Positions 5,601 to 33,405 of a stretch of DNA of 38,223 bases are shown here, one piece after another. The DNA is taken from contig JWZX01002322.1 in assembly GCA_001275005.1 (NCBI GenBank), positions 1 through 38,223 on the forward strand, in the 5' to 3' direction. Position 1 is the first letter of the stretch. Each line of letters opens with the position of its first letter. A model generated the notes under the pieces. That model was not told the DNA's origin. It worked only from the letters and a program-made list of their open reading frames with translations, and searched no databases. The translations under genes and the position numbers were made by a program. The DNA comes from Chrysochromulina tobinii (taxonomy: Eukaryota).

Positions 5601-6009
5601 CCTCGCCGGCCCTCGACTGTGTGGCTGCGCCGCGGGCGCCGCGGGCGCCGTCGGCGGTGGACGGCGCTCGCGCCCCAGCGGCGCGGCATCGTGCTCGTCC
5701 TCATCCGCTTCGGTACCCTGAGCGTCGTCCGTCGGGGGAGGTACGTAGGGCGTGGAGTCCCACTCGGGCCGCTCCTCGTGTTGCGGCGCCCCCTCCTCAA
5801 GCACCGGCGGCCCCTCGAAGATCTCCACGGCGAAGTCGGCGCCGCCGCCCCCCGCGCTCGCGCCCACCCTCTCCCTGGCGCGCGCACGGTCGGCCAGCCA
5901 CGGACGCTCCATCCGCGGCGTTGGCCGTGGGCGCGGAAGGGCCGCGGGCTGCTGGGTCGCCGGCGTGGCGAGCGATGCGGCCGTCCGACCGAGCGAAAGG
6001 CGCGAGCCT

Positions 6010-6047
<38 letters not shown>

Positions 6048-8444
6048 GCCGCCGCCGCCTCCTCCAGGCCACTCTGCGCCGGCGCCGCCTGCCATCTCGG
6101 AAGCGAGTCCGCTCCTCGGGGCGGCAGCCGCATGCGGGGTGCGCGTGTGAGGCTCCCCCAGTGACGCACGCGCGGCACCGCCGCCGCCCAACACGGCGCC
6201 CAAGCTCGAGCGCGCCGCCTTGAGCACAGGCCGTTCGGACGCCATCCCCGCCGCCAGCACGCGCAGCGCAGACGGAGGCAGCCGCTCCCGCAGCCGCGCG
6301 CCCCTCGGCGGCCACCGGCCCTCGAAGGCGAGGAAGGCGGCGCGAGCGGCGGTGCGCACCTGTGGGGAGAGGAGCGGGCGTCGTGGTGAGCACGTGCATG
6401 CATCGCAGAGGAAGGCGGCGCGAGCGGCGGTGCGCACCTCGGAGCCAGCATCGGTGAGCGCCTTAGTGAGCATCGGCTCGACGTCGGCGAGGTAGTCGTC
6501 GACGCCGGGCGCTGTGAAGGTGGCGAGGATCACCTCGAGATACAGGGCGCAGCGCGCGCGCAGCGGCGGGCCGCTGTCCGACGCGGAGACGCCCGCGAGG
6601 ATGGATGGGAGGATCGCGGGAGATTTGACGAAGTGCAGCAGCTGCCGAATGCACTGGTCCGCCGCGTCGGCGATGACGGCCACGGTGACGCGCAACACAC
6701 GCACGAGCGCGGGCATCAGGTCGATGGCACTCTCCCGGAACGAAGGGCCGAGCACGCGCGCGCCCTCCGCGATCACGTCACACGCGAGCTTGACGCACTT
6801 GGACCGAAGGTCCGTGAGCTGCAGCGAGAGAGGCTCGACCATGTGCGTGTGGAAGAGCAGCCCGAACGTGGGAAGCCGCGCCGCGCTGCCGAGCAGGAGC
6901 CCGTGGACGCGCCGCATCGCTGCCGCGCGCTCCTGCCACGCGCCGTCCTGGCGCAGCGGCCGGCGCAGCTCGCGCGCGAGCTCGCGCAGCTCGCGCGTCG
7001 CCTCCTCCGTCGAGCCGACCCGCACGGGCGATGGCGGATGCGTGTACTCGCCCTCCGCCGCCGCGAGCGACTTGCGCCGGCTGGTCGCGGGCGCGCCATG
7101 TGGAGCACTTGCATGCGCGCTAGCCGCGTCGGGGCGGGAGGGCGCGCCGATCGAGTGGCGGCGAGCGGCCGACGGCGGCGCCACCGACGAGGGCTGCGGC
7201 ACCGGCAGCGGCGGTGGCTCGTCCCGAACGTCGTCCCGAGCGTCCCAGTCGCCCCAGCCCGCCGCCGGTGAGAGGCCGGCGCCGCCCATGTGCAACGTCC
7301 CCAGCGGCGGCAGCTCGGCGCTCTCCGCTGGCACGGGCGGCGGAGCGGACAAGGCGTGAGGGTGGAAGGGGTGATGTGCGCCCAACACGGCGCCAGTGGC
7401 CGCATAGGGCTGTGCGGCATCGACGGTAGCCGCGAGGGCCGCCGCCATCGTCTGCGAGAGAGTAGCGCCGCTGCCCCCAGGCAAGCTCTGCCTCGATGGC
7501 AGCGGCGTCGAGGGCGCAGAGAGCGTGCTCGGGGCGCCGTGGGGCGCGTAGCGCGGCGTGGCGTGGCCGCTGCCCTCGCCACCGCCACCCCGACCACCTC
7601 GCGATGGCGGCGGCGGCGGCGGCGCAGGCGGCGGCGGCGGCGGCGGGTAGGCCACATGAAGCGGCGGCAGGTAGGGTGCGACGCCGCGATCATGCTCATC
7701 GAGACGCGCGAGCACGAGGCGCATCGCGCCGCGTGGCACGTCTACCGGCGCCGCCGCCGCGGTCAGCTGTTCACGGAACATGGGGATGCCGGTGGCATGC
7801 ACCTCTTGCAGCAACGCGAGGGCCGCCTGCGCCGGGAGCGAGGCGGCGTCGTCGAGCAGCCTGAGGATAGTCGGCAGCTCCTTGATGCAGGCGGTGGGCA
7901 GCTCCATGCCAGGCGGCGGGTCGCGTTGGTGCAAGGCGTGCGTGAGCAGCAGCAGCACCGCCTCGCGCACGCGCACGCTCCGGCCGAGCACCGCCTTCGA
8001 GAGCATCGCCGGCACAACGACCGACGCGCGCACGACGGTGAGCAGCTCAAGCAGCGCGCGCGCTGCGAGCGTGCGCACGCCCATATCATTGTCGGCGAGC
8101 CGCTCCGCCAGGTGCGGCACTACTTGATCGAGCGATGAGCGCAGCGCGCTGCCACACTTGTGCAGCAGCGCCGGAAGCGGCCGCAGCACATTCTGCCGCA
8201 CGAGCACACTTCCCGCCGTGCGGTGGTGCGTGAGTGCAGAGAGGATGGAATCGAGCTCCTGCGCACGCGAGAGCAGCAGCGGGGCTGTCAGCAGCAGCCG
8301 GCACCCCGGGAACCGGCGCACCCGGCGCACCTTGGGGCTGGGAACGCTGAATTCATTGCGCTCGAGCAGGGCCAGCCCGCGCTCGCGCTGCTCCGGAACC
8401 TTGGAATTTATGAGCGACATGACGGCTGTCAGGTTGGTCGACAT
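2616..8444 (-). CDS. CLASP: CLASP-family TOG/HEAT microtubule-binding protein with long low-complexity linker and C-terminal coiled coil; exons 8444-8331, 8258-6438, 6359-2616 (~1892 aa after splicing)
   Basis: An N-terminal HEAT array (LAERLADNDMGVR, VRVREAVL) is followed by a CLASP TOG2-like domain (WQERAAAMRRVHGLL; LTDLRSKCVKLAC; LRARCALYL; DAGSEVRTAARAAF...WP). Two in-frame, stop-free GT-AG introns (72 and 78 nt) are translated through in the 1942-aa ORF track. Confidence 0.8.
4584..4646. repeat. 27-nt tandem repeat x2.3 in CLASP exon (ELPVTVHVA)
   Basis: cacgggcagctcagccacgtgcacagt at 4584 and 4611, partial at 4638. Confidence 0.9.
5110..5211. repeat. 21-nt perfect tandem repeat x4.9 in CLASP exon (EVGARTG)
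   Basis: cccgtgcgagctccaacctcg at 5110, 5131, 5152, 5173, partial at 5194. Confidence 0.95.
6360..6437 (-). mobile_element. Introner-like intron A (78 nt): 30-nt copy of next exon plus 48-nt shared element
   Basis: Minus strand reads GAG|GTGCGCACCGCCGCTCGCGCCGCCTTCCTC-TGCGATGCATGCACGTGCTCACCACGACGCCCGCTCCTCTCCCCACAG|GTGCGCACCGCC. Removal restores the HEAT motif DAGSEVRTAARAAFLAF. Confidence 0.85.
8259..8330 (-). other. Ordinary 72-nt spliceosomal intron in CLASP (in frame, no stop)
   Basis: AAG|GTGCGC donor, CTGAC branch motif, GCGCAG|GAG acceptor. Confidence 0.75.
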
Positions 8445-8553
8445 GGTGGCGGGCCGTCAATGAGAGCGGAGAGTGAGCCACGACTGGTGTGCCATCATCT
8501 TTGCGTAGAAGCGCCTCGCGGGCACAGCTACCGGGCACAGCTACCGGTCGTAC
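8445..8553. promoter_or_regulatory. Putative bidirectional promoter/5' UTR interval between CLASP and filamin-repeat genes
   Basis: Only 109 nt separate the divergent ATGs. Contains a 13-nt tandem duplication gggcacagctacc (8520-8545). Confidence 0.5.
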
Positions 8554-11500
8554 ATGATGTCGGGTTGGGTCGCTGGGACCCCTGTCCAACCCTTCAGTGA
8601 GCTGCTCGACCGCATCGAAGACCTTCTTGGAGAGGATCGTGGGAGCGTCCGGGACAGCTGTGCGACGCAAGTGTTCAGCTATAGCCAGCCGCCGAGCCGG
8701 CAATCGCACCGTACTCCCCCGCCTCCGCCTCCGCCACCGCCCTCTCAGCCCAACTCACGGAGTTGGGCGGCGCCAGTGGCCACGCCAGCGCCACGCAACC
8801 AGCCGCCGCTGACGCCTCGAAACAAGCCGCCCTCAAAGCCTACGCCCGCGCCGTCCCACCCGCCTGCCGCTGCAGCTCCGACCACCACGCCGCGATGGCA
8901 GCCTCCTCCAGTGCCTCCAGCTCCTCTGACTGCAGCAGCACCGCCGTCACGACCGCCGCCGCCGCCGCCGCCGCCGCCACCGGCGCCTCCACTCACGCCC
9001 TTGGTCACGCACGGCCTGACCTCCCACCGCACCTCCGTGGCGTTCGGTGGCGCGCTCGAGCGTTGCTACGTGCACCGACCGTCGTTCGTGACGGTGCAGG
9101 CGCGCGACGCCTCGGGCGTCAACTGCCGCGTGGGCGGCGACAACTTCAGCGTGAAGCTGCGCGGGCCGATCAAGGACCTGGTCGCGAGCGTGCACGACCG
9201 CGACGACGGCACGTACGTCGCCGAGTTCACGGCGCCCGTGACGGGCGAGTACGCGCTTCTCGTGCTGCTCGACGGCCGTCACATCCACGGCTCGCCTTTT
9301 GTGCTCCGCGTTGGATCCGGCGCGGCGCATGGACCGAGCTGCGTGCTGCTCGAGGCGGCGGGCGAGAAGGGCGGCTTTCCTTCTCGTGCCCACGACGGCG
9401 TCGCGCCCTCGTCCGCACCGCTCACAAGCCCCCGCCCGCCGCTCGTTGCGGGGGTTGAGATGCGATTCGTGCTTGAGGCCCACGACGAGCGCGGCGGGCG
9501 GATCACACATGGGGGCGAGCATGTGCAGGCGTGGCTGCAGCCGGCGCCCGACGCGCAGCCCGCGGCGGTCGCGTCGCTCGTTGGTGGGCCGCACGCGCGC
9601 GCGCCGCCCGAGCTAGCCATCGACGACCGTGGCGACGGCACGTACCTGGTTCGGCTGCGCGTGTACGTGGCAGGCCCGTACGAATTACACGTGCTGCTTG
9701 GCGCGCGTGCGGCGGAGGAGCGCATCGGGGGCACGCCGCTCGCGCTGCGCGTGGTGCCCGGTCCGGCGTGCGCGCCCGCGACGACGCTCCACGTGCTCTC
9801 GCCCTCGGGCGTGCCGATGCCGCACGGCACGCCCTTTGCGCCCGTTCACGCGGGCGTGGAGACGTCCTTCATGCTGCTCGCGAACGACTCGTACGGCAAC
9901 GCCTGCGGGCGCGGCGGCGGGCGCTTCGAGATGGCGGTGGAGCACAGCACGAGCGCGGACGCGCGGGATGACTTTTTCGTGGCGACCGATCTCGTCGATC
10001 ACGCCGATGGCCGTTACAGCGGCAGCCTGCGCGCGGGACGCGCGGGCGAGGCGTTGCTTCGAGTGACCCTCGATGGCGCGCCGATAGGGACGCCATTCAT
10101 CGTGCCGATCGTGCCAGGCCCGACGTGCGCCGCGTGCTGCCGCGTGCGCGTCGCGCGGGCGTCGCTCGACGCCCACGCGGATCCACACCGATGGGCCGCG
10201 CTGCATGCATCGGCGCCGTTGGGCAAGGGAGCCGCGCTGGGGTGCCCACCACAACGCGTTGGCCAGCCGGCCGGCGCTGGAAGAGGGTTTGGAGCCGCGG
10301 GCATGTCGCCCTCGGCGCCGCTTCCACAGCTCACGATGGGTGTGGGCGAGACGGCGGAGGCGCTCATCGAGGCGTACGATGCGTACGGGAACCCACGCGG
10401 TCGAGGTGCGCTGACGGGCACAGAATGGCCTCTGAATGCCGCTGAGTGCCTCTGAGAGTGCCTCGGGCTGCTCTCTGAGCGCCTCAGAATGCCTCTTGAG
10501 TGCCTCTGGATTGACTCTTGATTGCCCTCTTGAGTGCCGCTGATTGCCTCTTGAGTGCCTCTGAGTGCCTCCTGAGCGCCTCTGACGGCCACCGTCCCTT
10601 CGCCCCCATCATCAGGCGGTGACACGTGGCACCTCGAGATCAACGGCCCTCAAGGTGCGGGTAATGCCCAGCACGGCGCGGGTAATGCCCAGCACGGCGC
10701 GGGCGGTGCCCAGCACGGCGCGGGCGCGTCCCACTCGATCCTCGATCGTGGCGATGGCACCTACGTACTGAGCCTCACCTGTCGTGTGGCCGGCGAGCAC
10801 GTCGCCCACGTGGGCCTATGGAGCTCTCCGAGGGCACCCGCCGAGGACGCTGCCGTCTCGGGCCGGCTGGACCCAGGTACGCTGCCGTACCAGCTGCAGC
10901 CAGTCACGCCCGTCGCACGGGCGGCGCCCAACACGGCGCCGGCAGTTTCGGCGCAGCCGCAGCTCCACTGGTTACCTCACGCACCGCTGCGCTTGCTGGC
11001 GACGCCCCAGGCGCTCACAGCTGCATGCACGATCGTGTGGCCGCGCCCGCCGCCGCCGGTGCAGGCAGGCGAGCCGATCGAGCTGCTGCTGCGTGCGACG
11101 GATCCATGGGGCAATCCGGTCGGCTCTCTGGGCGGCGCGACCGCGGTGCTCGAGAGGCTCGCAGATCTCGATCTGCAGCCACTCACCCTGCTGCAGCCGC
11201 GGCGCGCCGTCCTGGGCGCGGGCACGGCCGCCGAGGACGATGCGGACGACCTCGCGCGCCGTTACATCCCCTGCGAGCTGCACCGCGGGGGCTTCGTCCG
11301 GGAAGGCGCCCGGGACGGCGCCCGGGACGGCGCCCGGGACGGCGCCCGGGACGGCGTCCGGGACGGCGCCCTGGACGACGACACGTACTTCGAACCGGAG
11401 TCGAGCGCGCGTTCGATAGGCTGGAGTGAGCTGCGGCTGCGCGCCTTCCCCACACGCGTCGGTCTCTACCTGCCGCTCCTCACCGTGCATGGTCAGCCCT

Positions 11501-11783
11501 TCAGGCCGCCCACGATTGAGTATGCGATGCATGTGCGCGCTCACCACGACGCCCCCTCCGCGATGCATGCACGTGCTCACCACGACGCCCGCTCCTCTCC
11601 CCACAGGTGCGCGCTGGCCCGCCCGCCGCGCAGCGCTCGTACGCGCGCGGCCCGGCGCTGCGCGGCGGCGAGGTCGGGCAGCTCTGCCGATTTCGGGTCG
11701 CTGTGTGCGATGCGTACGGCAACCCACTGCGGGGCTGTGCAGCAGCGGTGCGGGCAACCGTGCGACACGTGCCCCACGGACAA

Positions 11784-11828
<45 letters not shown>

Positions 11829-13612
11829 AGGGGCTCTATGGGCGCCGCCCGCGGCGCAACGGCTGCCTCGCCAGACCGTCGCGACCGGCAGAGCGCCCGA
11901 GCAGCCGACTACGCCGCGGCGGCGGGCGCAGCCGGCGTCTTGCCCTCGTCGCCCGCGTCGCACGTGTCGGCCTGCTTGGGTGCGATCTCGAGCTGGCAAG
12001 CCGTGCGGCACGCCGAGGAGGCGGGCGCCATAGCGAGCGCTCAGGAGCGCGCGATGGCAAACGCGGCGGCGGAGGACGAGGCGTGCATGCGCGGCGCTGA
12101 CCGTGATGAAGACGACGAGGCGGCGTGGGGCGAGAGCGCGCACGAGGTGTGCGTCGTCACCGTGGACGACGCCGAAGAGGATGAGGCGCCCGAGACGGCG
12201 GGATGGGCGCGTGCCACATTTATGCCGCGCCGTGCCGGCACCCACGTGATCCGCGCGTACGTGGGCGGCCTCGAGATCAGCGGCTCCCCCTCGTGCATGC
12301 AAGTGCTCACCACGACGCCCCCTCCACTTCCCCACAGGTACGTGGGCGGCCTCGAGATCAGCGGCTCCCCCTTCGTAACGGCATTCAGCGCGGGCTCTGT
12401 GGCTGCGGCGCGCTGCGCCGCGCGCGGCGAAGGGCTGCGCACGGCCACCGTCGGCGCAGCCGCGCTGGTCGAGGTATGTTCGACGCGAGCGGGAACCAAA
12501 TTAGGAACATTCTCCAACGTGGCGATGCATGCAAGTGCTCACCACGACGCCCGCTCCTCTCCCCACAGGTGTGTTCGTTCGACGCGAGCGGGAACATGCT
12601 CCGACGTGGCGATGGGGGCGCCAGTGTCTTCGTCGCGTCCCTCCAACGGCCGGACGGCGCCCCTGTCGACTGCACGTCGCGGTGCTTCGACCGCGATGAT
12701 GGCAGCTACCGACTCGCATACACGACGTTCACGGCTGGTGCGATGCAGCTGTCGATCAGCTGTCGCGGCTGCCCCGTGCGTGGCTCCCCCTTTGACGTTG
12801 TCGTCGCGCCTGGGCGCGCACATGCGCCGCACTGCCGTGTCGTGGGCTCGGGCGCTTCCTTTGCTAGGCTCGCGCCAACGGTCGCCACGTTCACCCTCGT
12901 GTGCTACGACCGTTGGCGCAACCGGTGCGTGGCGGGCGGCGAGCGTGTGGTCGTCAAGGCAGCAGGCCCCACGCACCCCATCTTGAGCGTGCTCGACCTC
13001 TCCGATGGCACGTACCAGGTCTGCGCGCGCTACTCGCTCTCGGGCATCTATCTGCTGACGGTGGGCCTCGGCGCAAGGGCGGAGGAGCGCATGCTCGTCC
13101 CCGGCTCGCCGCTCACCGTGTACGTCGGCCTGCAGCTTGCGGAGCAGTATCTGGAGCGATGGCTCGACGAGGCGCCACGTGTCAAGTCGAGCCTCGCCGC
13201 CGAGGTTGCGGCAAGGGTGGGCGCCGGCGGCGCCGGTGGCGGCAGCGGTGGCGGCAGCGGTGGCGGCGGTCTGCTGGCACTCACGAGGCTCGGACAGTGG
13301 CGGCACGATCGCGAGGCACTGCTTGCGCACACGCTGCGTGCGTGGAAGCACTTTGTCGGGCGGCGGCTGCTCGATCGCATGGTGGCAGGCTCCGTCCCTG
13401 CCGGCTCGCCTCGAGTCGTCACCCACAAGGGGGCTCCGGTGCTTGCCCCGGGGCCGCCTTCCCAGCAGCAGCAGCAGCAGCAGCAGCCGAAGCGGCTCTC
13501 GCACCGTCCTCACCTCCACCCGCACGCCCTGACGACCACCTCGAGACTCAGCACGCCGAGATCGCCAAGGTCAGTGGCTGCGGGCTCGGCACGGCAGATT
13601 TCTTCACGCTAA
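8554..13612 (+). CDS. Filamin/ABP280 Ig-like repeat protein (~8 repeats) with Pro-rich N-terminus; exons 8554-10405, 10616-11532, 11607-12256, 12338-12473, 12569-13612 (~1532 aa)
   Basis: Recurrent filamin motifs (D-x-x-GN...GG; D-x-x-DGTY; GxY-x-L-x-V; GSPFxVxV-x-PG) run across ORFs 8554, 10786, 11607 and 12203. Four GT-AG introns join them in frame (sum 4599 nt). The donor of intron 2 is less certain. Confidence 0.85.
10406..10615 (+). repeat. 210-nt intron filled with degenerate 10-11-nt TGAGTGCCTC(T) satellite
   Basis: GAG|GTGCGC donor; roughly 15 units of CTGA(G/A/T)TGCCT from ~10422-10590; CTGAC at 10582-10586; ATCAG|GC acceptor. Splicing restores the filamin motif YGNPRGRGGDTW. Confidence 0.85.
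11305..11372. repeat. 12-nt coding tandem repeat (DGAR)x~5
   Basis: ggcgcccgggac units within the filamin gene exon. Confidence 0.9.
11533..11606 (+). mobile_element. Introner-like intron B (~74 nt) with a degenerate plus an intact element copy in tandem
   Basis: The element at 11560-11606 is identical over 47 nt to the copy in CLASP, with a degenerate copy at 11523-11559. The acceptor CAG|GTGCGC at 11606 switches to the filamin frame. Proposed donor CAT|GTGCGCGCT duplicates the first 9 nt of the next exon. Confidence 0.7.
12257..12337 (+). mobile_element. Introner-like intron C (81 nt): perfect 35-nt copy of next exon plus 46-nt element variant
   Basis: GC|GTACGTGGGCGGCCTCGAGATCAGCGGCTCCCCCT-CGTGCATGCAAGTGCTCACCACGACGCCCCCTCCACTTCCCCACAG|GTACGTGGGCGG. 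Removal gives IRAYVGGLEISGSPFVT. Confidence 0.85.
12474..12568 (+). mobile_element. Introner-like intron D (95 nt): decayed copy of next exon plus 47-nt element
   Basis: GAG|GTATGT donor. The element at 12522-12568 has 1 mismatch to copies A/B. Splicing is required to join the two filamin frames (LVE|VCSFDASGN). Confidence 0.88.
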
Positions 13613-14083
13613 TTTACGTGAGCTTAGCTGATAGAATGGTTAGCACCGGCCAATACGATAGAGGGGTTAGAGCACATATATCGGAATCTGTACGTGTCGT
13701 GTGCCACAGTGTTCAAAGCCTATTAGGTAATTACCTGAGTAGTGGGAAGGTCCCCCTAGGCGTCAAAAAAGTGCGCCGCTGTGGGCGTGACTTAGTTTGC
13801 GGCATGGTTTGCGGACGAGAAGCACTCGGACTCGCGCTCGCACGTCTCGCTCTCTCTCCTCTCACGACCATGCACACGGCTAACGCGCGCGTACATGTAA
13901 GGGGCCTGTGGGGCCTGCTGCCGAAGTGTTCCGTATCTGTCAGTCGTCAGCGCTGCCCGCGGCATGCCTGCGAGTGGAGCGCTGGCAACCATGTTGATGT
14001 GTCCGCAAGTGTAACCTATAAGGGTCGCGTTTCGCTGCAGAGTGACCTTCGGCTTCGCTTTCGAAGCCTGTGGCCTCCTCGAA

Positions 14084-22224: not shown

Positions 22225-22628
22225 GGTTGGCACTCTAGCTGCGCGACGTCATTATGATCTGTGGATAATGTCATGGAATGGCGTGCGAGAGAGCCGAGAC
22301 AGTGTATAGTGTGTAACTCATTGAGTTGTTAAGAAGTTTGCTAGTGTACACGACGCTTGAGTTCTACAGTTCGCCATTATCACCTCGCAACCGAAGCGTG
22401 TCGGTGACATTCGCGCACGGTCCGGTCTTGGGTCTACGTTACCGGTCCTACGTCCGAGTCGCCCCCGACGTGACAATCCAATCCTATCTACTCAGTCTCG
22501 TCCTCTCGTCGCTCCCCCAAAGTTCCGTCCTAGAGCGCTAGAGGCGGACGGGGCGGCCTGGAAACCTCGCTACTCCGGCGGCTACTCACCTATTCGTCCG
22601 CCGCATCCATATCGCATATACGCGCGTC

Positions 22629-22647
22629 CTGGTGAGCACTTGCTTGC
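22629..22647 (-). mobile_element. Truncated fifth copy of the introner-like element between duplicated gene-end sequences
   Basis: Minus strand GCAAGCAAGTGCTCACCAG is 17/19 to element core GCATGCAAGTGCTCACCAC. It is flanked by imperfect direct repeats 22676-22707 and 22590-22628. Confidence 0.55.
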
Positions 22648-22675
22648 GGGGCAGGAGTGGTTCGTCACAACACCA

Positions 22676-24892
22676 CTACTCGTCCGCCGCATCCATATGC
22701 GCGCGTCGCGTCGGCGCGCGCCGTGGACTCGGCGCGAGAAGATCAATCGTCTCGTGTAGCTGCTCGTGGATGAGCGACGCCTGCTGCGCAGCCTGCTCCT
22801 TGTTCCACAACGCACGCAGCTCGGCTGCTCGCACATCTTCTTCGAGACGCGAGCTGACCTCCTCCGCGCGGCGCGCTCGCGCAGCCTCCAGCGCCGCTTG
22901 CTGCTCCGCGGCCCCGAGCCGCATGCGCAGCTCGAGTGTCTCCTTGGAGGCCGCCAGCGCCGCTTGGGTCGCCGCGTGCTCGAGCTCGGCCACACGGCAC
23001 TCACTCGCGTCGGCCCGCGCGTCGGCGGTTACGCGGGCAGCTTCGAGCTCCTCGGTGCGTGCAGAAAGCGTCGCCTGGCTCTGCTGCAGCTCCGCGCTCA
23101 GACGCTCCGCCAGGCGCGTCAACTCACTGAGCTGCTGTTGGAGGGCCTCTCGTTGGGAAGCCTCGGCCGCCGCAGCTGCCTCGCGCCGCGCCGCCACCGC
23201 CACGTGGCGCCACGCGCCGAAGGACGTCGCTGCGGTGAGCCGCGCGTCGCCGTAGGCCACCGCGTGCGCCCAGTGCGTCCGTGCGCGACTGGCGACCGCC
23301 GCGCGTCGCACGAGGCCAGCGGAGGCATCGGCGGCGGCCTGTCGGGCGCGATCGAGATCCGCACTTAGTGCGCGGTGCCGTCGGCGGCTGACAAGGTGTG
23401 ACCAGTGACTCAAGCTCGCCTGCAGGTCCGCCTGCTGCCGGAGGCGCCACTCGCGTTCGGCAAAGCTGTCGGCACCGGCGTAGCGCGCGTGCTCGCTCCT
23501 GGTGAACGCCCGCTCGAGATAGTCGATCTCCCCACAGAGCAGCCCGCGCGCCTCGACGGACGTCCGTAGACGCTCGATCGACGCACGCGCGCTGAGCGCA
23601 CGCTGCCGCTCGGAGGCAGCTGCATCGGCGTGCGCGCTCTCGGCGCGCGCCTCGGCCAGCGCGCCCGCATGCGCCGCCGCCTCGCGCACCGCCGCCTCTA
23701 GCCTTCCACGCAGCTCGCTCTCCGCCGCTGCGGCAGAGCCCGCCATCTGCGCACGCACGCGGCGCGCCGTCGCGAGCACCGCCCAGAAGCGCAGGGTGGC
23801 CCCAAGGCAACGCCCAAGACGACGCTGGGCCGCCGCCACGCGGCGCGCCGTCGCGAGCACCGCCCAGAAGCGCAGGGTGGCCCCAAGACGACGCAGGGCC
23901 GCCGCGGCGGCGAAGACGGCGCCGAGCTGCTCGAGTACCTGGCTGTGCCGCGCGACACGCCGCTCGCTCAAGACGACACTTTCGAGCCTCTGCTCCTCCT
24001 CGGCCGCTGCTTTGGCAAGAGCCTCGGCGCGCTGCTGGCGGGTAGCGAGCACGAGCAGCTGCGCCTCGGAGGCCTCACGCTGCGCGACACGCAGCTGCGC
24101 GGCTATCGCCTCGGCCGCCGAGCGCGCGTTCGCTTCGCTCTGCGTGCGCTCCGCCGCCATCTCGGCAGCCGCCTGGAGGCGCGCGGCTCGATGTCTCGCC
24201 GTGGCCGCAAACAGGCGCCACGTGCCGAGCAGGTGCATCGCGGCGCGCTGCTCACGACGCGCCGCGAGCGCCATGGAGAATGTGTCGCACACGACATCGT
24301 GCATGCGCTCGAGCTTCGAGGCAACCTGTGCGCTCGCTTGCTGCAGCTGCTCGTCGACCGTCGCGTGCGTCTGCTGCTTCTGCGCCTCTGCCGCCGCGTG
24401 CGCCCGCTGCACCTCCGCCTCCGCCGCGGCGCGCACCTCGTCCAAGCGCGCCTCGGCCGCGGCGCGCGCCTCCCGCGCCTCCGCCTCGGCCGCGGCGCGT
24501 GCCTCCTCGGCACGGCGACGGCGGCGGCCTTCCTCGAAGGCAAGCCGCTCGGCCTCTTTGCGACGTGCCTCCTCTGCCTCGAGCCTCGCGGACGTCTCCG
24601 CAGTCAACTCGTCTGCCGTGCGCAGATGCGCGATAAGTTCCGTGTTACGGTCATCTTCGCTGTCGAGGCCTGCAACAACGTGCCGCCAGTGGCACAGAGC
24701 GGCAAGTGCAGAGCCCCACACAGCGCGAGAGAATACGCCGATTACCTTGTCGGCCCCGAGCATGAGCTGTAGGGTATTTGCGCGCTCAATAATGGCATCA
24801 CGCTCCGAGCTGGCACGGAAGAGGGCTTCGTCCTTTTCTGCAATCGCGTCCCGCGCCTTGGTCACCTCGGCGACCAAGGCCGCCACCGCCAT
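22676..24892 (-). CDS. Ala-rich coiled-coil protein with spaced Trp motifs (Sfi1/centrin-binding-like), 738 aa
   Basis: Long heptad-rich ORF with repeated motifs ALCHWRH, LLGTWRL, TLRFWAV (x2), SLSHWSH, SFGAWRH resembling the Sfi1 [FL]xxW[KR] repeat end. Family assignment is tentative. Confidence 0.65.
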   Translation of the reverse strand: MAVAALVAEVTKARDAIAEKDEALFRASSERDAIIERANTLQLMLGADKVIGVFSRAVWGSALAALCHWRHVVAGLDSEDDRNTELIAHLRTADELTAETSARLEAEEARRKEAERLAFEEGRRRRRAEEARAAAEAEAREARAAAEARLDEVRAAAEAEVQRAHAAAEAQKQQTHATVDEQLQQASAQVASKLERMHDVVCDTFSMALAARREQRAAMHLLGTWRLFAATARHRAARLQAAAEMAAERTQSEANARSAAEAIAAQLRVAQREASEAQLLVLATRQQRAEALAKAAAEEEQRLESVVLSERRVARHSQVLEQLGAVFAAAAALRRLGATLRFWAVLATARRVAAAQRRLGRCLGATLRFWAVLATARRVRAQMAGSAAAAESELRGRLEAAVREAAAHAGALAEARAESAHADAAASERQRALSARASIERLRTSVEARGLLCGEIDYLERAFTRSEHARYAGADSFAEREWRLRQQADLQASLSHWSHLVSRRRHRALSADLDRARQAAADASAGLVRRAAVASRARTHWAHAVAYGDARLTAATSFGAWRHVAVAARREAAAAAEASQREALQQQLSELTRLAERLSAELQQSQATLSARTEELEAARVTADARADASECRVAELEHAATQAALAASKETLELRMRLGAAEQQAALEAARARRAEEVSSRLEEDVRAAELRALWNKEQAAQQASLIHEQLHETIDLLAPSPRRAPTRRAHMDAADE

Positions 24893-25114
24893 CGAGAACC
24901 CAGTTGCTGGGCTACAACATTCACAGCGATCCGTTCATCGGCGCGGCAGTAAAGCAAGCTCTCACGCTCACGGTTCAGAAGCGACGGCCCACCACGTGTC
25001 AACGAAACCACCAGTTTGGCTACCGGTAATGATTGCTCAAGGACTTCCGTGGTGCTCGCTCTGGGACTTCAGGCGAGCGGCGACGGACCGTGCACGGTGA
25101 ACGGATCGTTGACG

Positions 25115-27510: not shown

Positions 27511-28770
27511 TCAGTCGGCATGCAGCTTGTCGAGAACGGCAGCGGCGGCGGCGGTGTACGATTTGCGCAGCGCAAGCTCGTCGCGCCCGGTCTTGTACAG
27601 GCCATACATCATGAGCTTGACGGCGGCCACGAAGCTCATCTCGCGGAACGGCAGATTGAACTTTTTGGCGAGCGCCTTGCAGTCCCCGCGGATTTGGCGA
27701 AGGTTCTCCATGGGCATCTGAGGCGCCATGTGGTGCTCGATCTGGACGTTGAGGAAGCCCGAGATGTACCCCGCGAACGCCGACGAGCCCGCCCAGTCGA
27801 CGGTGCCGATCATCGACGACTCAAGCCACGTGGCCGTCGAGGGCAGGCGCTCGACAGCAAAGTGCGACAGGCCAAAGAAGAAGCCGAGGTACACGCCCTG
27901 GAAGGCGTACGCGGTGCAGTAGACGGTCAGGGCCTGGCTGAGCGTGCAACCCACCTTGAAGAGACCCGTGATGAAGATCGCGTAGTGGGCGAGCATCAGC
28001 GCCACCTCGTGCCACAGCTGCTTGACCACCGCATACTTACGCACTGTGAACGCGAAGATGAAGACGTAGGCGCCGAGCGCGGGAAGGAAAGTGAATGCTT
28101 GTGTGCGCAGCGACCAATCGGGCACCTGCTTGGCGAGGGTCGTGTCCCACGCAAAGAAGGGCGTCGTGCGCAGGTCGCCGTCCTCGCCGAGCACGTTCGT
28201 CTTCGCGTGGTGCTTGTTGTGGCGGTTGCGCCACCACGAGGCCGAGCCACCCTTGAGCAGGCCCTCGAAAAAGTGCTGCCACACGAGTGACACCTTGCCG
28301 AGCTCGCGGTGACCGCCCATGTGCTGCAGGAAGCCGCAGTGCGCCCACGCGGTGCCGAGAAGGAGGCCGCAGCACACCGGCGCGAGCGGCGCGAACACGA
28401 CCGCCGACACGATCGCCGCCACGACGACCAGGGCATATGAGGTCGAAGCGAGAGGCCGCGGCTCGTAGAGGCCGCGCGCACGCCACGAAGCGAGCATCTC
28501 CGTCATCGCAGTGACGTGCTCCATCGGCTGGGGTGGCATGTCGGGCCGCTCGGGCAGCGTCGGCAGTGAGTTGAGCATCAGCGTCGCCTTCTTGCTGTGG
28601 CCGTGGAAGGCCTCAAAGGCGGTCGTGGCGTCCATGCCGTGGAAGTTATCGAGGATGTTGCCCCCGGGATGACGGAACTCCTTGACATCTACTACACGCC
28701 CATGGATCTGCGTCCAAGGCTTCGCCGCTACCTTTTTCTTTGACTCCTTGGTCTCCATATCCATGCCCAT
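27511..28770 (-). CDS. Cytochrome b5-fused front-end fatty acid desaturase (regiospecificity undetermined), 419 aa
   Basis: HPGG haem motif and DATTAFEAFH; His boxes QHMGGH, HNKHH, QIEHH; multiple hydrophobic segments; intronless. Confidence 0.95.
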   Translation of the reverse strand: MGMDMETKESKKKVAAKPWTQIHGRVVDVKEFRHPGGNILDNFHGMDATTAFEAFHGHSKKATLMLNSLPTLPERPDMPPQPMEHVTAMTEMLASWRARGLYEPRPLASTSYALVVVAAIVSAVVFAPLAPVCCGLLLGTAWAHCGFLQHMGGHRELGKVSLVWQHFFEGLLKGGSASWWRNRHNKHHAKTNVLGEDGDLRTTPFFAWDTTLAKQVPDWSLRTQAFTFLPALGAYVFIFAFTVRKYAVVKQLWHEVALMLAHYAIFITGLFKVGCTLSQALTVYCTAYAFQGVYLGFFFGLSHFAVERLPSTATWLESSMIGTVDWAGSSAFAGYISGFLNVQIEHHMAPQMPMENLRQIRGDCKALAKKFNLPFREMSFVAAVKLMMYGLYKTGRDELALRKSYTAAAAAVLDKLHAD

Positions 28771-29015
28771 GATGCTCAGCGCAGATCGGACGGCGATCTG
28801 ATGCGGATTACGGATTCTCTTTCACATCTCGGAAATCCTGTGAACATTGCCCGCAATGAGTCCCCGAGCAAACGACGACTGTTCCCACCCTCGAGGGCGG
28901 CGAGGTGTTTGATGCGGCGACGTCGAATGAACGCTTACGATGGCGCGCTCCCCCGGGCGCCCGACGCGGCTCTCCTCGCAATGGCGTGGCTGACTCGCCT
29001 CAGAAGGAAACAGGG

Positions 29016-30422
29016 ATGGGAGCTGGCGATGACGTCAAAGGAGCCACACAGGCGCTCGTGGCTTCGTTGATGCTGTCGCAGGTCTCCGAACGCGAACGGG
29101 CGGCCGGCCTAGAATCGCAGCTCGAGAAGCTGCGCAACGCCGAGACACAGCACCGGGCCAAGCAGGAATCATCCGAGGCTAAGCAGGCATCTCTCGAAGC
29201 GGAGCTTCAGGTGCTGCGCGAGCAGAACTTGCAGAAGTGTGACGAACTTGCCGTGCTGCGCGCAGATACTGACCGGCGGCGTGAGAAGGAGCACGCCTTG
29301 GAGCTCACTCTTCTGCATGTGGCCCAGCAGGGCGAGGCGCTCATCGCAGCCGTTTGCTCGCTACTTCTGCAAGCACAGGAGACGGAGGGCGCCGCCCCGC
29401 GGATCGAGACCTCGCATGGCCTCGCAGCGGGCTGCGAACCAGCGCAGGTGATGCGAGCGAACTTCGAAGCAGCCGTTCGCGCTTTCAACGCATCGGTGGC
29501 GCAGACTGAGGACCTGATCGGGAGCGTGCGTGGCCTCGGCGAGCCTCTCGCTGGCTTCCGTGACGCGATACGCACGGCGACGCGGCCGCACCTGTGTGCG
29601 TCTAACGTGGCTCCCTTGGCGAACGGCGCCGCACGAGACAACACCAGTTGTGGCGGGAAAGGCGACGACGGCGTCTCCGATGTCGAGGGTTGCGGCGAGC
29701 AAGGCGACGATGAGGATGAGGACGACGTCTCGGACGTCGCCCCCGCCGCCTCGGACGCCGTCTCGGGCGTGGACTGGCAGGAGCGGCAGAGGCAGCAGCG
29801 GCTTCGAGAGTACGAAGCTGACCTTTGGCATCCCAAGGGCTCTGCCCACCCGCGGCCCTTGCATGCAAACTGTCGGCGGTCCGCACCCTTGCAAGCAAAT
29901 GGTCGGCGGTCCTCAGCCTTGCATGCAAATGGTCGGCGGTCACCACTCTTGCATGCTAATGGTCAGCGGTCCTCACCTGCCACGTCGTCGTCGCCGCAGC
30001 CCGAGTTGCGACCAGCGTGGCAGATGAAGTCGGACAAGGCGGAGGAGCCATCGACTGTGAATGTGAATGTGTCGACTGCTGATCAGGAGGGCGATGAGGA
30101 TGAGGAGGAAGCCGCCGCCCGTGCCTCCCTCGCAGCCCAAGGACTCTCCGGCAACGGCTGGAGTCGGAGGGCGCTAGTGTCGACCATTTTTGAGGTGGTG
30201 GTGCCCTTGGATGCTGCCTCGGGAGACACGCTCTTCGTCGCAGTGCCCGGGGGCGATGAGGTCAAGGTAGTCGTGCCTCCGGGTGTGCCACCCGGCTCGG
30301 TGCTCACGTGCTCTGCATGCACCAGCGGCAGCAATGGCAGCAATAGGAATAGCGGCAGCAGTGCGGCGGCGGAGACCGCGGTGGCACGGCTCAGCGAGTT
30401 GAGGAGATGGCGCATGGGATGA
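29016..30422 (+). CDS. Coiled-coil/low-complexity protein of unknown function (468 aa)
   Basis: First ATG in ORF 28905..30422. N-terminal heptads, acidic linker, 10-aa repeats, and a C-terminal VVVP..SG..LFV..PGG....VVVPPGVPPG module. Confidence 0.6.
   Translation: MGAGDDVKGATQALVASLMLSQVSERERAAGLESQLEKLRNAETQHRAKQESSEAKQASLEAELQVLREQNLQKCDELAVLRADTDRRREKEHALELTLLHVAQQGEALIAAVCSLLLQAQETEGAAPRIETSHGLAAGCEPAQVMRANFEAAVRAFNASVAQTEDLIGSVRGLGEPLAGFRDAIRTATRPHLCASNVAPLANGAARDNTSCGGKGDDGVSDVEGCGEQGDDEDEDDVSDVAPAASDAVSGVDWQERQRQQRLREYEADLWHPKGSAHPRPLHANCRRSAPLQANGRRSSALHANGRRSPLLHANGQRSSPATSSSPQPELRPAWQMKSDKAEEPSTVNVNVSTADQEGDEDEEEAAARASLAAQGLSGNGWSRRALVSTIFEVVVPLDAASGDTLFVAVPGGDEVKVVVPPGVPPGSVLTCSACTSGSNGSNRNSGSSAAAETAVARLSELRRWRMG
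29856..29975. repeat. 30-nt degenerate tandem repeat x4 (LHANGRRSxx)
   Basis: Units start at 29856, 29886, 29916, 29946; consensus cttgcatgcaaatggtcggcggtc. Confidence 0.9.
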
Positions 30423-32302: not shown

Positions 32303-33260
32303 AGAGTAACATCTCTCGAAGCTACGCAGTAGAGGGTCGAGCCGAGGCACGCGGCGGCCTAACATGTTGAATCTTGCATGCGTGCACACACGATGCACAC
32401 GCAGCAGCAGCGCTCGCGCTCGAGAGCTTACGAGAGCTGGCAAGGGAGCAAGGCGCCGCGTTTGCGTGCTTAATTGCATGCGCACGTCTTCAAACCGCGT
32501 AGCGCGGTCGACTCACGCATAAGGCGGTCACTTATGTTGGGTGTATGTGGGATGTTGAGCCGGATGATCAAGCGGGGTGTTGGGTGGTCGAGAAGGCCCC
32601 CAATGCATGTGGGGTCGAGAGATGCGGGACTGGCGGCCGCGAGTTCTGAATCCGATGTGCATCGGCATGCCGGATACGCACGCATACGCAGGTGGTGTGG
32701 GTCGGAAGATGTGTGCAGTGTGGGGCTGCGGGATGGGAGGGCCAGGCCCAAGCTCGCCTCCGGGCCGCCATCCTCATCGCGCGCGTCCCGTCTGGGGGTG
32801 TTCGTCGTGATCCGACATTGTCATTCCTTTGACATATCATCCGTTTCATACACACATACCGGGGTGGCTCTGCGCGGGATTAACACATTAAAACTACATC
32901 GCCGGACTTCAACGACGCAGAAAATACACACAACCGGGAAATAACGCAATCGCAAATCCACTATATTTCGATACTTAACGGGAGACGGCACTCCTTGGCA
33001 TTCCACCTTTGTCGTCGCACTCGGTTCGCGGTATTGGCTCGGGAGAGGGGGCGAGATCATGCTAGCTTAGCCGCACACCTCTGAGGACACCGCAACCGCG
33101 CGTCCATCATGCATCAAGCATCATGTGGCATTCGATGTGCGCGCCGGCAAACAGACCAAGGCAAGTCCACGTCATCGCATAGCATCACTACACTACACTC
33201 GTTGCAGCCGGCACGGCCTCCTGCGCGCCTGTGCAACGGGATCATCTCAAGCTGAGGCCC

Positions 33261-33405
33261 CACAGAGCCCAAAACGACGCTGGGGGGCCACAGAGCCCAA
33301 TACGACGCTGGAGGGCCACATAGCCCAATACGACGCTGGGGGCGCACAGAGCTCAAAACGACGCTGGGGGGGCACAGAGCTCAATACGACGCTGGGGCCA
33401 CAGAG
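33261..33405. repeat. 28-nt minisatellite x5 downstream of DP stop codon
   Basis: cacagagcccaa(a/t)acgacgctggggggc units start at 33261, 33289, 33317, 33345, 33373, partial at 33399. Confidence 0.92.

Follow-up and report, generated by a model that had tools for sequence, protein, structure and literature searches.

An intron of Chrysochromulina tobinii composed of an exon duplicate and an imported acceptor cassette, and a possible route of intron gain by template switching

The origin of new spliceosomal introns is still an open question, and current surveys credit transposons. Intron C, located in a filamin-repeat gene of the haptophyte Chrysochromulina tobinii, raises this question in a specific form: its donor lies in duplicated exon sequence that is preceded by GC and not by AG, and one may ask from where its acceptor was obtained. 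The stretch of DNA analyzed here, referred to as the window, comprises 38,223 nt (contig JWZX01002322.1, forward strand). A desaturase encoded in the window has relatives annotated as Emiliania huxleyi and Coccolithus, in line with a haptophyte host, and the exact sequence of this desaturase is present in NCBI, UniRef, and EukProt.

Intron C is 81 nt long, in frame and free of stop codons. A sequence-only reading of this DNA had described a perfect 35-nt duplication at this position, and the two copies (12257-12291 and 12338-12372) are indeed identical and do not permit an extension to the left. The upstream copy (12257..12291, + strand) begins with GTACGT, the co-opted donor of intron C, and is preceded by GC, whereas the downstream copy (12338..12372, +) is preceded by CAG, both as described; the latter copy forms the start of the next exon and encodes YVGGLEISGSP of a filamin-type repeat. 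The two copies enclose a non-duplicated insert of 46 nt (12292..12337, +), which is the acceptor cassette in its C subfamily form and consists of a palindromic leader, a pyrimidine tract, and CAG. It ends CCCCCTCCACTTCCCCACAG, as had been claimed, and thereby supplies the acceptor CAG. Judging from its sequence, CTCAC at positions 12306-12310 of the cassette is the likely branch point. The last 8 nt of the upstream duplicate (12284..12291, +) equal the sequence fronting the same cassette at another locus (L031), and this overlap represents either microhomology or parental bases passed on to the daughter. When the window was resampled 30 times with an order-5 Markov model, exact repeats at a spacing of 40-300 nt reached maximum lengths of 11-16 nt, and a 16-nt cassette core finds six matches in the window at up to two mismatches vs. 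0.11 expected. It is nearly certain that intron C consists of an exon duplicate, an imported acceptor cassette, and a co-opted donor.

The wider cassette family was collected in one scan of metagenome contigs, which returned 42 loci and constitutes a sampling of that collection, not a genome-wide census; the runs containing the stretch are labelled as mixed culture, freshwater, lake, or marine. Together with the window, these loci yield 24 distinct sites (four of them in the window) in 13 neighbourhoods and in many unrelated genes. CAG|GT is found at 23 of the 24 sites, and the imported acceptor and co-opted donor postulated for intron C recur with it at these 23. Duplications measure about 5-44 nt; at 20 curated sites they are exact over 2-38 nt and extend up to 44 nt if mismatches are allowed. 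From this donor table four of the 24 sites are omitted (L002, the first copy of L004, the non-GT site of L031, and L037 as orthologue of L001). Homology across sites is confined to the 3′ half of the intron, and at most sites the 5′ part is the site-specific duplicate. All full copies end with a pyrimidine tract and CAG, and no poly(A) or simple-repeat 3′ tail is present in them. Exceptions to the fixed ends are truncated copies at 22.6 kb of the window and inside an intron of L037. Antisense and non-GT degenerate cassettes are read through in one open frame in a low-complexity region (L031:924-1110), so that the cassette is also able to extend coding sequence. In run X1, contig depth summed across the cassette (~54,000 vs. 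~105) is inflated by overlapping contigs and unusable as copy number. Viral contigs and prokaryote genomes, when scanned, each yielded a single chance match (L043, L044) and hence no viral or bacterial source, and a search of positions 6000-13000 against Rfam returned two matches, at E values of 0.13 and 0.3, neither on a cassette.

The C variant of the cassette had been suspected to reflect several active subfamilies or source templates, with decay after insertion as the alternative. It is not unique, as L031 contains all 46 nt of the insert without a change; this base-for-base recurrence defines a subfamily and leads us to reject decay after insertion as the source of the variant. Several source templates are in use, given that L002 and L027 also contain the C tail from core to CAG, and the C-type 5′ leader occurs at L004, L008 (twice), and L031.

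Tandem duplication of an AGGT-containing exon segment resembles the present case in that the duplicated exon provides the donor, but according to the available text of PMC3443670 that model relies on an AG within the duplicate and involves no foreign sequence, and intron C departs from it in both respects. Therefore, as the sequence-only reading had argued, simple AGGT duplication is ruled out for intron C, in which GC precedes the donor. Where a genome-wide count of the dinucleotide preceding the upstream duplicate had been envisaged, the count obtained covers the 20 curated sites: AG stands there at seven, which is above chance (p = 1e-4), yet it is missing at the remaining 13, as it is in intron C.

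The host gene extends from a predicted start at 8554 to 13612 (8554..13612, +), within a frame of 1547 codons from position 8509 if introns I0, B, C, and D are removed. This long frame requires removal of I0, B, and D, comprising 1574 codons with C kept and 1547 without it, and otherwise 648-1397 codons. Intron B (11533..11606, +; 74 nt), whose removal the reading frame needs, consists of a 9-nt duplication and two head-to-tail cassette units with a 36-nt period; partial head-to-tail tandems of the cassette occur at other sites as well. Intron D (12474..12568, +; 95 nt) contains a decayed duplication, a short filler, and the cassette. Intron A (6360..6437, -; 78 nt) resides in a CLASP-domain gene, has a 30-nt duplication preceded by AG, and carries almost the same cassette sequence as the second unit in intron B. 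The older intron I0 (10406..10615, +; 210 nt) is an array of 10-nt units. In addition, a 3′-truncated cassette fragment (22623-22647, within 22594..22698, -) lies between two exact 19-nt repeats, has no pyrimidine tract, and falls at the stop codon of the ORF 22676-24934.

Comparison with relatives indicates when intron C was acquired. The relatives P0017 (93% identical) and P0018 (63%; both values for the aligned region) have no counterpart of precisely the 27 residues encoded by C, which makes intron C a recent gain, and they also lack B and D at the exact positions. P0017 starts with residues encoded by the end of intron I0 and must therefore derive from genomic DNA in which I0 is still present. 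Intron C is present in five alleles, one of which has a 1-base deletion in the upstream copy that leaves an intron of 80 nt and would lose the frame if unspliced, although this deletion may be an assembly slip. Intron D varies among alleles, being 95 nt long in the window, 99 nt long and in frame in P0016, and missing in L035, where C is present. L026 and L010 are empty at positions where L037 or L003 carry cassettes. L003, L010, L026, L037, and L001 represent two gene copies, which we take to be ornithine-decarboxylase-like, with cassette introns at the same position and different 5′ halves. A second intron common to L003 and L037 is missing in L026 and L010, which suggests transfer between paralogues, or loss.

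Splicing was followed in six RNA runs, all of them examined as contigs and among the joints and rows listed. The junction 12256/12338 predicted for intron C is not among the joints listed in these six runs, and the RNA evidence on it is an indirect sign in one contig of run X18. This contig skips D as a 95-nt GT..AG intron and then continues in the downstream copy, unlike the empty allele L035; the same contig starts at 12338, and its 12 letters at that point are incompatible with the cassette, in keeping with splicing of C as well. The skip of D could alternatively correspond to an empty allele with GTG. Splicing is thus supported for D and, for C, only indirectly. Intron C is unspliced in contigs of X13 and X15 and intron B in X15, which may reflect DNA in the library or true retention; retention of C is possible because it is in frame and stop-free. 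For intron A no RNA cover exists among the rows listed, to which we give no weight. In the neighbouring gene, an ordinary intron of 72 nt (8258-8330, -; donor GTGCGC, CTGAC branch motif, in frame, stop-free) is skipped in RNA contigs of X14 and X17. Intron lengths are not multiples of three at 14 of the 20 curated sites, so that functional host genes would require splicing of most copies. An enrichment of in-frame lengths among cassette introns was considered and rejected, with multiples of three at 6/20 sites.

Several traces indicate how cassettes are copied. C and L031 are identical over 59 bases, i.e., the 46-nt insert with 8 nt upstream and 5 nt downstream. The C-type leader is accompanied by a GTAC target at 5/5 sites compared to 1/15 others (Fisher p = 0.0004; post hoc, the test having been chosen after the data were seen, on few and partly related sites). 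Nearest cassette relatives share 4.08 downstream bases vs. 3.05 after permutation (p = 0.004, 20 sites; the linkage tests omit two homologous positions, one non-GT site, and one same-site tandem from the 24). A global Mantel test relating cassette similarity to the match downstream gave rho = 0.005 (p = 0.45, 22 sites); this counts against a linkage over all pairs and places the target-linkage signal only among close relatives. Independent support for a template reaching past the CAG is provided by the X1 contigs that leave the window right after the CAG of intron C, as 16 of the 24 listed still match GTAC or GTACG. Toward the other side, the loose ends in X1 agree only at ~0.5 upstream of ~20 nt before the core, and those listed have no upstream sequence in common.

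At the 5′ junction, overlap with another cassette copy averages 4.0 nt vs. 0.7 nt expected (10 of 14 sites scorable, p = 1e-5), and without C and B it still amounts to 3.0 vs. 0.7 nt (eight sites, p = 5e-5). Two copies in L014, situated 245 nt apart, have a 13-mer in common that originates from the duplicated exon of one of them and occurs at no other site; it is the upstream copy that carries these bases from its neighbour's duplicated exon. Likewise, one leader is common to A, B, and D and absent from every other site. Seven of the 13 neighbourhoods have a second site inside one 1.2-kb locus (p = 3e-4 at window density). By eye, several junctions (D, L031, L027, and L037) contain filler that repeats flanking exon sequence or matches the cassette in inverted form. 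The best downstream coding frame is on the cassette strand at 20 of the 24 sites (codon model; control 127/131), whereas the sense coding share of non-antisense GTRCG sites is only ~0.47-0.6, a value derived from one window with incomplete annotation. Four of the 24 frame calls are antisense; by eye, L002 codes in sense and L004 is masked by its own tandem. This sense bias could stem from selection or from sampling of the collection. Neighbouring copies occur on both strands (A vs. B and D; L031), which a strict same-transcript model fails to explain and which counts against it.

With moderate confidence, we propose that intron C is a recent member of the multi-copy cassette family and that new members are produced by a polymerase, probably a reverse transcriptase acting on pre-mRNA, that switches from one template to another at short matches. 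The cassette likely spreads from one young intron to the next and possesses no transposase of its own. The process would begin when a transcribed exon is broken 5-45 nt 3′ of a GTRCG. With the transcript of the same gene as template, the downstream end would be extended and the intervening stretch copied a second time; on reaching GTRCG, the new strand would anneal to the exon start behind an existing cassette intron, which also begins with GTRCG. The 3′ end of that intron, ~35-60 nt, would then be copied, and the copied strand would rejoin the upstream end at a short match. In the product, the GT of the duplicate would serve as donor, the cassette would provide branch point and acceptor, and splicing would restore the original mRNA. 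Each daughter would again present CAG|GTRCG and could act as the next template; neither element ends nor a transposase would be required, and selection would remove copies that do not splice.

The junction and flank traces point to an inserted intron with its flanks as template, and not to a free element with fixed ends. The exact CAG|GT would follow if priming uses the GTRCG found behind the acceptor of every such intron, and the variable duplication would follow if extension of the downstream end first duplicates sequence of the gene itself. The excess of sense frames favours an RNA template, which is the weakest step of the mechanism. An excised lariat as sole template is disfavoured, as the match runs past the CAG, and a lariat loop used as a rolling template was rejected, since by eye the tandem unit of B-type copies does not join the branch point to GT.

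Copying from a template might also proceed on DNA alone, by polymerase-theta-type joining or replication template switching at a staggered or resected break, with selection keeping the spliceable copies. Templated insertions are a mark of polymerase theta. A nearby cassette intron serving as template would fit the 5′ microhomology, and local clustering on both strands, short local or inverted fillers at D, L031, L027, and L037, and truncated copies agree with repair of this kind, for which intron gains at staggered breaks with 4-12 bp repeats in Daphnia offer a precedent (available text of PMC4202315). Repair blind to splicing, however, would be expected to leave many full non-coding copies and many 3′ junctions inside the C-rich tract, whereas every pattern-matched site ends in CAG|GT and almost every one is in a sense frame, so that we regard this explanation as rather unlikely. 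A spliceosomal origin, in which the spliceosome joins a lariat tail (CAG) to the donor-like GT of another transcript and the chimeric RNA templates repair of a nearby break, would account for the exact CAG|GT, the donor-like targets, and the sense bias. The attachment of lariat tails to a 5′ splice site is known to give rise to circles, yet the available text of PMC11146597 does not demonstrate joining to another RNA, and neither the same target bases within a subfamily nor truncated copies are predicted; it appears very improbable.

Mobile elements offer two further explanations. The cassette might be the end of a non-autonomous retroelement (SINE-like, LINE, or Penelope-like) inserted by target-primed reverse transcription and truncated at the 5′ side near 50 nt. 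LINEs and Penelope-like elements, as described in the available text of PMC9977147 and PMC8557442, exhibit variable duplications, 5′ truncation, and partial tandems, and the cassette resembles them: its 3′ end directly adjoins the beginning of the duplicate (23 of 24 full sites), the duplications differ in length, the 5′ end is uneven and shows microhomology, and some copies contain partial head-to-tail units or, occasionally, inverted 5′ snippets; moreover, one Pavlovales introner family that co-opts its 5′ and carries its 3′ splice site is classed as non-LTR (available text of PMC12130899). The lack of any poly(A) or simple-repeat tail, the lack of common sequence upstream of ~20 nt before the core, and the local clustering are unexpected for such an element, and subfamilies that track the first bases of the target, together with copies that carry exon bases of a neighbour, speak for intron templates instead of one master RNA. 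A retroelement end is accordingly judged improbable. Less probable still is a tiny non-autonomous HUH element of the Replitron type, read from the opposite strand and multiplying by copy-and-paste, even though three of four Replitron-1 insertion signatures fit (fixed dinucleotide end, fuzzy parent-flank end, and variable duplication) and Replitron proteins are known from two haptophytes (available text of PMC10288648). No terminal direct repeat is seen by eye, folds reach z scores of only -1.4 to +1.1, 46 nt are less than the two 53-bp ends common to Replitron-1 and its non-autonomous partner, such duplications are found only in Chlamydomonas reinhardtii according to the same text, and the sense bias would be left unexplained.

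How template switching from cassette introns relates to known systems depends on which feature is considered. The cassette behaves like an introner in the broad sense, with homologous intron sequence at 24 sites in 13 neighbourhoods and empty sites in relatives, and it behaves neither like a DNA transposon nor like a simple duplication. The inverted repeats and the fixed short duplication of MITE-type introners are absent; across the cassette introns there are no terminal inverted repeats, the longest end-to-end match being 5 nt and non-terminal, and single-strand folds are no better than those of shuffled sequences (z -1.4 to +1.1), although a short palindrome is present. A carried acceptor with a co-opted donor is known introner logic, described for dinoflagellates and others with fixed duplications of 3-8 nt (available text of 10.1101/2020.10.14.339549; 10.1101/2022.06.06.494994). 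As in those introners, the acceptor is imported, the donor derives from a duplicate, removal would be clean, and many unrelated genes are affected. In contrast to them, with their defined ends and, in Symbiodinium, inverted repeats (available text of the same sources), cassette introns have a duplication making up to half of the intron, a ragged 5′ end, and homology only in the 3′ half. The novelty is in the footprint, which is distinguished by the absence of inverted ends and of a fixed duplication length, by 5′ microhomology, by a GTAC-linked subfamily, by local clusters with private variants, and by the carry-over of exon bases from neighbours. A literature search, with most subscription journals and preprint supplements outside its range, found no description of this footprint.

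Among haptophytes, Emiliania fam24 and the Pavlovales families fam1 and fam11 co-opt the 5′ and carry the 3′ splice site like the cassette, whereas family 5 of Chrysochromulina sp. TARA carries its donor and has a 4-bp duplication, and Emiliania fam24 differs by a duplication called at 2 nt and by terminal direct repeats of 10 bp, all as given in the available parts of PMC9860276 and PMC12130899; the comparison with these families is one of published descriptions. The staggered-break gains of Daphnia pulex are similar with regard to an exon repeat at the far intron end, repeated secondary insertions into young introns, and parallel gains at a single site, but the available text of PMC4202315 gives repeats of 4-12 bp and names no common source of the filler, whereas here the filler is a traceable cassette with subfamilies. 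In the reverse transcriptase template-switching model, as cited in the available text of PMC3443670, the enzyme likewise moves between two RNAs at a splice junction, but the outcome mimics transposition of a whole intron, whereas here the 3′ end only would be copied and the donor rebuilt by duplication. Replitron-1 and Replitron-N1 of C. reinhardtii share with the cassette a fixed dinucleotide end, a fuzzy end with parental flank, variable duplication, and copy-and-paste spread; they themselves are at least 910 bp long, possess terminal direct repeats and a HUH transposase, are under-represented in coding sequence, and are not reported to create introns in the available text of PMC10288648.

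If the template-switch reading is true, it constitutes a new route to intron gain. Surveys seek introns alike at both ends, and families common only in the 3′ half are missed by them; in the cassette family, only B-type copies share both ends. C. tobinii itself exemplifies such a miss, being scored with 0 introner families in a 2025 survey of 8,716 genomes that has 15 rows for other haptophytes (available part of PMC12130899), which suggests that half-introners may lie hidden in other genomes. Young, polymorphic copies with parent-daughter traces at both junctions make template-switch and break-repair models testable site by site. More tentatively, the intron itself might be self-templating, in that no transposon is involved but simply an intron 3′ end with a donor-like exon start, which ordinary RNA-templated repair would copy by microhomology to further donor-like sites, regenerating the donor through duplication and passing an identical flank to each daughter. 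If so, branch-point-like repeat arrays serving as templates would also build and lengthen the other introns of this genome.

Arrays of CTGA-containing 10-nt units stand at the donor of young cassette introns (L037:480-1140, L042:30-560, and L008), accompanied by 20-28 nt duplicated from the exon upstream. One intron of L037 consists of the 10-nt array alone, with the duplicate giving the AG, and thus forms the mirror image of intron C. In L004:585-790 and L011:205-370, whole units of duplicate plus cassette are in tandem (78 nt twice in L004), with more such cases in contigs, and they might be due to either repeated insertion or unequal crossing-over. Cassettes at L002, L008:513-640, and L011 abut an older acceptor, with CAG followed immediately by GT, so that two acceptors stand in a row, possibly permitting recursive splicing. 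Other repeats in the window include a four-unit 30-nt tandem at 29856-29977 with the same palindromic GCATGC leader inside the ORF 28860-30422, and a 28-nt tandem of five units at 33260-33405. Just 3′ of the filamin gene (13704-13760), contigs of X13 and X15 jump back 57 nt, reflecting a small duplication absent from the window. Finally, a front-end fatty-acid desaturase gene at 27514-28770 (-) is encoded without introns.
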